From NCBI GenBank assembly GCA_045612805.1, contig JAZKZR010000010.1, positions 195,136 through 259,135 on the forward strand: DNA of 64,000 nt, given 5' to 3'. Shown here in pieces: positions 12,190 through 12,525 of the stretch (its first letter is position 1; every line of letters begins with the position of its first letter). The DNA is from Candidatus Enterousia sp. Its GTDB lineage: Bacteria; Pseudomonadota; Alphaproteobacteria; Rs-D84. The notes under the pieces were generated by a model. That model saw only the letters and a list, made by a program, of their open reading frames with translations, was not told where the DNA came from and ran no database searches. Both the position numbers and the translations under genes were made by a program.

Positions 12190-12525
12190 ATAATCAATTC
12201 GTCACTTATGTGATGATGATTCTGAACCCGATGCGGAATAGTCGTTTTGGACCCGGGGGCGGTACCCGGCACCTCCACCAATAAAACATATGGGGGTGTA
12301 TGAGTTTCGACAGACGCAATAAAGGCATATGGCTGAATCCGACATGGTTGTCGTTAAATACCAAATAAAAACATGAATGGCGATAGAACGCCAGCGAACG
12401 ACAATGTTCGCCTTGCAATGGCCGCCTAATAATGGCTTGGACATGGTTGGCGATTGTTAACCTGTCCGTTTTGGCTTTTGCGGGGCCCGCCGGGTGCCTG
12501 GCACCAGAAACCCGGCATTTAATAA
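12190..12525 (+). ncRNA. ssrA: tmRNA (ssrA), circularly permuted two-piece type; the acceptor piece ends in CCA at 12282 and the coding piece starts at 12294 (boundaries approximate)
   Basis: T-arm-like ccggg-ggcggta-cccgg is followed by cacctcc-a-cca. The downstream GGGGGTG pairs with it and includes a G3:U wobble. The tag frame at 12396-12428 reads GCG AAC GAC AAT GTT CGC CTT GCA ATG GCC GCC, giving ANDNVRLAMAA, and ends in TAA TAA. Confidence 0.65.

Follow-up and report, generated by a model that had tools for sequence, protein, structure and literature searches.

The locus at positions 12190-12525 of the window (the whole stretch of DNA analysed, 64,000 nucleotides) is ssrA, the gene for a two-piece tmRNA made from a circularly permuted precursor, in an uncultured gut or rumen alphaproteobacterium of the Candidatus Enterousia / Rs-D84 group. 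We put the probability of this reading at about 0.96. The gene is an ordinary one: it specifies a thoroughly known kind of RNA in a lineage from which MAGs already exist, and it leaves the understanding of trans-translation unchanged. Three small items are worth recording, namely a tag ending in AMAA that is fixed in the clade, a hairpin at the resume junction, and a blind spot of ARAGORN.

Family match, layout and structure of the gene

The Rfam model alpha_tmRNA (RF01849) matches positions 12163-12519 of the plus strand with 149 bits (E = 6.6e-41). The match covers the whole model (positions 1-355 of 355), reaches three times the gathering score of 50 and is well outside chance expectation. 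The model tmRNA_permuted (RF04321, gathering score 47) matches 12218-12429 with 119 bits (E = 1.3e-22). A preliminary description of this locus, made from the sequence alone, had proposed a circularly permuted two-piece tmRNA and named RF01849 as the check; the gene order and both permuted-tmRNA models bear this out. According to the Rfam scan, this is the sole tmRNA of the 64-kb window: we detected no second tmRNA and no partial ssrA duplicate there, and the remaining Rfam RNA matches are five tRNAs only. The single elements of that description (T arm, CACCUCC-A-CCA, 11-nt spacer, GGGGGUG with its G3:U, and tag codons) were each located as proposed. The interval 12190-12525 spans the transcript, and the promoter-like element begins slightly earlier, at 12167. 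The features are as follows.

12167-12194, plus strand: promoter-like element from a consensus scan (-35 TTGCAA at 12167-72, 16-nt spacer, -10 TATAAT at 12189-94; 10 of 12 matches)
12200-12280, plus strand: acceptor piece of about 80 nt, from the Rfam alignment and covariation, both ends putative
12200-12215, plus strand: 5' hairpin CGUCAC-UUAU-GUGAUG, from the RF01849 consensus structure
12218-12249, plus strand: P2 strands of the acceptor piece (P2a 12218-22, P2b 12228-34, P2c 12243-45 plus 12247-49)
12253-12269, plus strand: T arm (CCGGG 12253-57, loop GGCGGUA, CCCGG 12265-69)
12270-12280, plus strand: acceptor-stem 3' strand (CACCUCC 12270-76, discriminator A12277, CCA 12278-80)
12281-12291, plus strand: intervening segment of 11 nt read from the sequence, ATAAAACATAT (in RNA notation AUAAAACAUAU)
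12292-12519, plus strand: coding piece (acceptor 5' strand, P2, PK1, tag frame, P5, long hairpin, PK2), 3' end approximate
12292-12298, plus strand: acceptor-stem 5' strand GGGGGUG
12340-12363, plus strand: pseudoknot PK1 (P3 CGAC 12340-43 with GUCG 12350-53; P4 UGGU 12345-48 with ACCA 12360-63)
12378-12393, plus strand: extra hairpin UGGCG-AUAGAA-CGCCA, immediately 5' of the resume codon
12394-12432, plus strand: tag frame ANDNVRLAMAA, from resume codon GCG 12394-96 to GCC 12424-26, stops UAA UAA 12427-32
12415-12481, plus strand: P5-like long-range helix (GCAAUGGCC 12415-23 with GGCUUUUGC 12473-81) around the stop codons and the long hairpin
12439-12467, plus strand: long hairpin after the tag (GGACA-GGUUGGC, loop GAUU, GUUAACC-UGUCC)
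12481-12515, plus strand: pseudoknot PK2 (S1 CGGG 12481-84 with CCUG 12497-12500; S2 CCGGGU 12490-95 with ACCCGG 12510-15)
12202-12444, minus strand: antisense ORF of 80 aa
12206-12595, minus strand: antisense ORF of 129 aa

Relatives were sought in GTDB genomes, one for each species, with the pattern GGCACCTCCACCA-N5-35-GGGGGTG-N5-9-TTCGAC. The scan returned 80 loci, all but one labelled alphaproteobacterial or unclassified proteobacterial, and about 53 of them are orthologues of the window ssrA (77-98% identity over the whole 357 nt). The permuted order is common to all 80 loci, and the intervening segment varies among them in sequence and in length (5-35 nt). By analogy with Caulobacter, the 11 nt present here would be removed during maturation.

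The promoter motif CTTGCAA...TATAAT is kept in nearly all of about 48 clade genomes, and the 5-7 nt past the -10 element vary. Because the promoter is conserved and the nucleotides directly downstream of it are variable, transcription would start at about 12200-12202. The acceptor piece then contains, in order, the 5' hairpin, the 3' strands of P2, the T arm, the acceptor 3' strand, the discriminator A and an encoded CCA. Its tRNA-Ala-like domain has an acceptor stem of 7 bp with G12294:U12274 (G3:U70) among the seven pairs of GGGGGUG with CACCUCC, the discriminator A12277 and a T arm of 5 bp, and lacks an anticodon arm. We take G12294:U12274 to be the G3:U70 alanine identity pair. The T arm is invariant in the clade, and its loop agrees with the alphaproteobacterial consensus GGCgGUA.

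Covariation was analyzed on an alignment of 49 sequences (A1). Over this set the proposed structure is 94.3% paired, and 22 pairs (213 cells) are changed on both sides. This level of double change was reached by none of 500 shuffles, and slid controls were 33-47% paired. In the 5' hairpin, four of the six pairs have changed on both sides within the clade. The P2 strands of the acceptor piece pair with 12311-12339 of the coding piece, joining the two pieces; P2 (helices 2-4) comprises 18 pairs, seven of them with double changes, and is 86-100% paired across the clade. P3 of PK1 is present in the Rfam consensus, and P4 covaries without a single mismatch (U-A in 27 sequences, C-G in 9). The long hairpin after the tag has double changes in 8 of 12 pairs, with 97% of cells paired.

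The P5-like helix, whose 5' strand consists of the A-M-A codons, is 88% paired and has one covarying pair (C:G to U:A, in 8 sequences), and we regard it as probable, with modest support. It was preferred to a short local P5 hairpin (GCC 12424-26 with GGC 12434-36), which is paired in just 52% of the clade. In PK2, three pairs of S2 carry double changes. S1 does not vary within the clade and differs from other alphaproteobacteria by a G.U to C-G swap (CGGGG...CCUGG vs CGCGG...CCGGG). The hairpin-loop stretch CCUGGCA.CAGAA of PK2 recurs in about 12 of the 27 loci from other alphaproteobacteria. Other partners for this invariant 3' loop (UUCUG in P2a, or an extended GGUGCC/GGCACC stem) were rejected by inspection, as they clash with paired helices. 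The 3' limit of the coding piece was taken from the end of the Rfam match, 12519. Two-piece tmRNAs carry PK1 and PK2 (PMC3985003), and the two-pseudoknot coding piece found here agrees with that picture.

The tag frame and the resume junction

The tag frame reads GCG AAC GAC AAU GUU CGC CUU GCA AUG GCC GCC UAA UAA. It has no start codon; an alanine resume codon is followed by the rest of ANDN, a hydrophobic-Ala-Ala end and a stop. The ANDN-type tag noticed at the outset is confirmed and is conserved over about 50 related genomes. Among 48 aligned relatives, the middle of the tag is that of ANDNVRLAMAA or a near variant (VRF, VQL, RPL, VPL, RLL, PRPL), and one relative starts with ANSN. Nucleotide differences in the clade alignment are mainly synonymous third-position changes (GAC/GAU, AAU/AAC, CGC/CGU, GCC/GCU), which argues for selection on a translated peptide. 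Such synonymous variation affects the codons for D, N, R and A, and the AMAA codons are kept in 47 of the 48 relatives.

The LAMAA tail, which had been called mildly unusual, is indeed so. AMAA ends the tag in 47 of 48 aligned relatives, the remaining one having ALAA (L064), vs no methionine at -3 in any of the 19 readable alphaproteobacterial tags outside the clade. Those 19 end in AVAA, ALAA, AQAA, AAAA, RLAA, AIAA, VLAA, AAAAA, RIYA or QKAA. Met at -3 is therefore a trait of the lineage and not a peculiarity of the window. The A of the tag AUG pairs with U12478 in the proposed P5-like helix, and on this structural model the RNA may help to keep AUG in the tag instead of a leucine codon. We found no mention of ANDNVRLAMAA, LAMAA or Enterousia in the tmRNA database paper or its supplement; the fixed methionine is a minor addition to the catalogued diversity of tags.

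In E. coli structures, SmpB stacks on the four bases just 5' of the resume codon (PMC8363625), and position -5 is preferably a pyrimidine, position -4 a purine (PMC8363625; PMC4236655). In alphaproteobacteria outside the clade, the six bases 5' of the resume codon fit A-Y-R-A-N-U (AUAAAU, ACAAAU, AUGAAU). Within the clade, AUGAAU is joined directly to GCG in 25 of 54 sequences, and the other 29 carry between the two exactly 15 extra bases that form a self-contained hairpin. The extra hairpin of the window, an indel in the alignment, is a re-registered form of this 15-nt insertion (GGCGAU-AGA-AUCGCU). It has 5 bp and a predicted energy of -7.2 kcal/mol (z = -2.9), and none of 200 shuffles was equally stable. 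In the window, the bases from -6 to -1 are ACGCCA, with C at -5 and G at -4, in line with the pyrimidine/purine rule. They include no AUAR tetramer of the AUAG/AUAA type and are predicted to be paired, and the canonical AUGAAU sits 15 nt further upstream.

The presence or absence of the hairpin changes at least four times on a neighbour-joining tree of the tmRNAs. Since the inserted sequence is identical in distant branches, the hairpin was probably ancestral and was precisely lost several times. The re-registered form (...AACGCCA followed by GCG) is shared by one other sequence, the JGI metagenome contig Ga0310694_10031243 (L081), whose identity over 5 kb is only 92-94% and whose tmRNA shows further differences elsewhere. 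The occurrence of the same variant in this independent, diverged contig means that it is no assembly error.

The resume codon itself lies within a predicted 6-bp hairpin (12394-12411, GCGAAC/GUUCGC, -8.2 kcal/mol), whose E. coli counterpart is the U88-A100 hairpin (PMC8363625). In the hairpin-bearing relatives, ARAGORN picks the GCU of the inserted hairpin as the resume codon, which gives AANDN...; the window has CCA at that position, so GCG is favoured as the resume codon throughout the clade. We also considered the AUAG of the hairpin loop as frame-setter and rejected it, as it would yield a long peptide unlike a tag.

The 15-nt hairpin splits AUGAAU from the resume codon, and it could either be looped out, leaving the hexamer to act across the hairpin base, or point to a tmRNA-SmpB frame rule unlike that of the E. 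coli structures. We consider this rather doubtful. If it were true, the clade, with its precise losses and the re-registered version in the window, would be a natural experiment on the choice of frame by tmRNA, and the clade-wide AMAA together with an adjacent Lon homologue without protease domain might reflect an altered route of degradation. A hairpin at the -1/+1 junction that is present or exactly missing in close relatives offers a ready comparative test of frame selection.

The ARAGORN negative and the question of a decayed gene

ARAGORN, the other check that had been suggested, did not agree: it reported five tRNAs and no tmRNA in the window. With thresholds lowered to 80% it still gave no sensible tmRNA in the window, and made one nonsense minus-strand call at -ps80. 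We attribute this to a limitation of the tool. Over the 53 orthologues, ARAGORN detected 22 and missed 31, the latter including every close relative of the window. When segments of the window were put into detected orthologues, two of them abolished detection (P2c, and the few bases 5' of the resume codon). In the reverse chimera, 2 nt in P2c and 6 nt before the resume codon from a detected orthologue were enough for 'tmRNA* AANDNVRLAMAA' to be called. The clade-wide misses and the rescue by the chimera show that the negative is a heuristic limit and not evidence against the gene. The tmRNA database paper advises the joint use of BLAST, ARAGORN and covariance models (PMC11915505). Pipelines that use ARAGORN only would report such genomes as lacking tmRNA.

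The same negative would also be compatible with a decaying or non-functional remnant, in which the tRNA-like part survives and a displaced frame-setter and hairpin block proper tagging. The hexamer ACGCCA at -6 to -1, which is not the alphaproteobacterial A-Y-R-A-N-U, the hairpin that covers -1 to -16 and the reduced genomes of the lineage would fit such decay. We nevertheless judge it very improbable. The locus is the sole tmRNA of the window and matches the whole Rfam model at three times the gathering threshold, and the hairpin architecture is shared by 29 of 54 clade genomes, with tag, stops, pseudoknots and promoter conserved. Moreover, the exact variant of the window recurs in the independent contig that differs elsewhere, and the synonymous type of variation in the tag points to selection on the peptide.

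Neighbourhood, known tmRNAs and proposed maturation

The preliminary description had held that the locus anchors the taxonomy of the contig, and this stands: every one of the nearest relatives is an alphaproteobacterial MAG of rumen or gut origin, and several are labelled Candidatus Enterousia. Among the hosts whose rumen and gut MAGs supplied the orthologues are goat, sheep, deer, buffalo, yak and horse. The closest is the goat-omasum MAG RGIG2769 (JAFRSV010000011), with a tmRNA 98.3% identical and an Obg 97% identical. An exact-match look-up of the window Obg gave no entry in the protein collection, which makes the source an unsampled strain or species within a sampled lineage. An apparent second ssrA copy on JAIDWS010000009 (L034, L073) was set aside, as the two loci agree in both match and synteny coordinates and look like one site. 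NCBI places Candidatus Enterousia in Alphaproteobacteria incertae sedis, and GTDB in the order Rs-D84, with genomes of about 0.75-1 Mb that are without TCA cycle or respiration (PMC12306168). The ssrA puts the contig in this gut-rumen group with reduced genomes. Genes for rubrerythrin, flavodoxin and peroxiredoxin are present in the window and are consistent with anaerobic life.

About 50 species share the synteny obg (minus strand), ssrA, a 77-aa ORF, a 585-aa Lon homologue and tsaB. No smpB, clpX, clpP or sspB was found among the genes of the 64-kb window.

The two minus-strand ORFs had been dismissed as spurious, rightly in our analysis: they are artefacts of a stop-poor strand. Neither is interrupted by a stop in the window or in its nearest relative (L002), which is what one would expect if the minus strand coded for protein and the resemblance to RNA were secondary. 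However, neither has a match in Pfam or NCBIfam, and reading frames on the minus strand of many relatives run for at most 33-58 codons. Substitutions track the base-pairing of the RNA, to whose covarying helices the ORFs are antisense, and not minus-strand codon positions. The 129-aa ORF also extends antisense into the conserved 77-aa gene. Minus-strand coding thus has next to no likelihood. The correct annotation of the locus is ssrA, and both antisense ORF calls should be deleted.

It is just as hard to credit that ssrA is part of a mobile element (an island or prophage with its own ssrA, or an attachment-site duplicate) and is not the housekeeping gene of the host: tmRNA genes are frequent integration sites in the literature, some tmRNAs are phage-borne and a phage-type lysozyme is encoded elsewhere in the window (55346-55861), but the adjoining genes are housekeeping ones (obg, Lon homologue, tsaB) in an order constant over about 50 species, the composition shows no break at the locus, and the window holds no partial ssrA repeat, on which ground an island integrated at ssrA was rejected.

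We compared the host ssrA of the window with known tmRNAs. The two-piece tmRNA of Caulobacter crescentus (Keiler, Shapiro and Williams, 2000, as presented in PMC3985003 and PMC11915505) and RF01849 have the same order of acceptor 3' half, CCA, spacer, and 5' half with tag. They also share the unusual T loop GGCgGUA, G3:U, PK1 before and PK2 after the tag, a tag that begins with ANDN and ends in AA, and the 3' loop CCUGGCA.CAGAA. The window differs from them by the 15-nt hairpin that separates the hexamer from the resume codon, by a spacer of 11 nt where the RF01849 consensus has about 33 nt, and by a tag that is shorter than that of Caulobacter (11 codons) and ends in AMAA instead of AVAA or ALAA. 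The tmRNAs of Candidatus Enterousia / Rs-D84 (e.g., JAFRSV010000011) are orthologous and have the same tag, promoter and neighbours, and the window sequence is identical to none of them.

Escherichia coli SsrA (tag AANDENYALAA) resembles the window in G3:U70, in an alanine resume codon followed by AAC GAC, in PK1 upstream of the tag, in a predicted hairpin with the resume codon and in a hydrophobic C-terminal ...AA tag. Unlike the window, it is one RNA with four pseudoknots and an ALAA tail, and its upstream AUAGUC is single-stranded and touches SmpB, whereas the counterpart bases of the window are predicted to be paired. The permuted tmRNAs of Betaproteobacteria and Cyanobacteria share the permuted gene and the two-piece mature form, as reflected in the 119 bits for RF04321, into which RF01850 and RF01851 (the models for these two groups) have been merged. 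The alpha model nevertheless scores higher (149 bits), and the tag of ANDN type, the pseudoknot loop at the 3' end and all close relatives are alphaproteobacterial.

The analysis shows that the gene belongs to the family and carries all its sequence determinants, that it and its promoter are conserved, that its helices covary and that the tag varies in the manner of a coding sequence. Processing sites, aminoacylation, dependence on SmpB and proteolysis of tagged proteins would follow by analogy with the two-piece tmRNA of Caulobacter and SsrA of E. coli. On this basis, the sigma-70-like conserved promoter would start transcription at about 12200, and the tRNA-like 3' half would be made first, closing with the encoded CCA at 12280; the 5' half would begin at G12292, past the 11-nt spacer. 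RNase P cleavage would create the 5' end at G12292, and the spacer would be lost as the upstream 3' end is trimmed back to the CCA. Maturation would yield two RNAs, of about 80 nt (acceptor piece) and about 225 nt (coding piece), held together by the 7-bp acceptor stem and the helix P2 of about 18 bp.

The G3:U70 pair would make the tmRNA a substrate for alanylation. Where a ribosome has stalled on a broken mRNA, the tmRNA would move into the vacant A site together with SmpB and EF-Tu and take over the nascent chain. Translation would then move to the internal frame at GCG 12394, (A)ANDNVRLAMAA would be appended, and termination at UAA UAA would free the ribosome. The hydrophobic ...AMAA-COOH end would mark the tagged protein for ATP-dependent proteases. 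A gene for RNase E/G is located elsewhere in the window, at 43095-44900.

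Hairpin at the tmRNA resume codon

Analysis of the permuted tmRNA (ssrA) of the window and its relatives showed that a 15-nt hairpin is inserted exactly between the upstream hexamer AUGAAU, which usually sets the frame, and the resume codon (window positions 12378–12393; columns ~193–207 of A1, our 49-sequence tmRNA alignment). This segment is found in 29 of 54 tmRNAs of the clade, while the others lack exactly that segment, and its presence or absence before the resume codon has changed at least four times on a tree of the tmRNAs. We also observed a re-registered variant of the hairpin, which the window shares with the metagenome contig Ga0310694_10031243.

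We ran ARAGORN 1.2.41 on the 80 permuted-tmRNA loci of our pattern scan (L001–L080). It missed 31 of the 53 clade tmRNA genes; among the alphaproteobacterial permuted tmRNAs that we retrieved from outside the clade, roughly one in two also went unreported. When hairpin-bearing genes were called, the resume codon was set one codon early, so that the tag was read as AANDN....

Genes downstream of ssrA

Two ORFs follow the tmRNA gene:

12547–12780, plus strand: hydrophobic ORF of 77 aa, without family match
12951–14708, plus strand: Lon homologue of 585 aa, matching TIGR00763

The 77-aa ORF starts 28 nt past the end of the tmRNA Rfam match, and no clear terminator was found between the two in the window; the ORF is possibly co-transcribed with ssrA. 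As it is kept in nearly all clade genomes (52–100% identity), it is a real small gene.

The Lon homologue retains the N-terminal substrate domain, the AAA+ module and the lid, and lacks the S16 protease domain. Its match to TIGR00763 covers positions 2–563 of 795 and lies under the trusted cut-off. More than 25 genomes of the clade conserve this 585-aa form over its whole length, and its gene usually comes second after ssrA. In the window, tsaB starts 11 nt beyond its stop codon.

Other genes of the window

5902–6972, plus strand: prfB (release factor 2), split by a +1 programmed frameshift site
16459–17730, minus strand: PIF1-like helicase of 423 aa, in a reduced bacterial genome
19703–40069, plus strand: single ORF of 6,788 aa (20.4 kb)
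40082–43068: Mla-like set (MlaE, ABC ATPase, MlaD and auxiliary lipoprotein), directly after the 6,788-aa ORF
618–1193: flavodoxin gene
9765–10391: rubrerythrin gene
51757–52593: peroxiredoxin gene
55346–55861: phage-type lysozyme, adjoining tRNA-Ser (54922–55010)

The prfB site is the classical AGGGGG TTT CTT TGA C (~5955–5971), and the match of the long ORF (6046–6972) to the RF2 model begins no earlier than model position 43.

The sole Pfam match of the giant ORF is the Listeria-Bacteroides repeat (Flg_new); genomes of Rs-D84, the lineage of the window, measure only ~0.75–1 Mb (PMC12306168). An anaerobic gut lifestyle has also been described for Rs-D84 (PMC12306168), and flavodoxin, rubrerythrin and peroxiredoxin form an oxidative-stress kit that is consistent with anaerobic life in the gut.

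The region from tRNA-Ser onwards (54922–64000) could represent a prophage remnant or an island at this tRNA. Beyond the lysozyme lie several ORFs without Pfam match, one of them of 1,234 aa (56421–60125), and G+C falls to 0.40 at 60–62 kb of the window.
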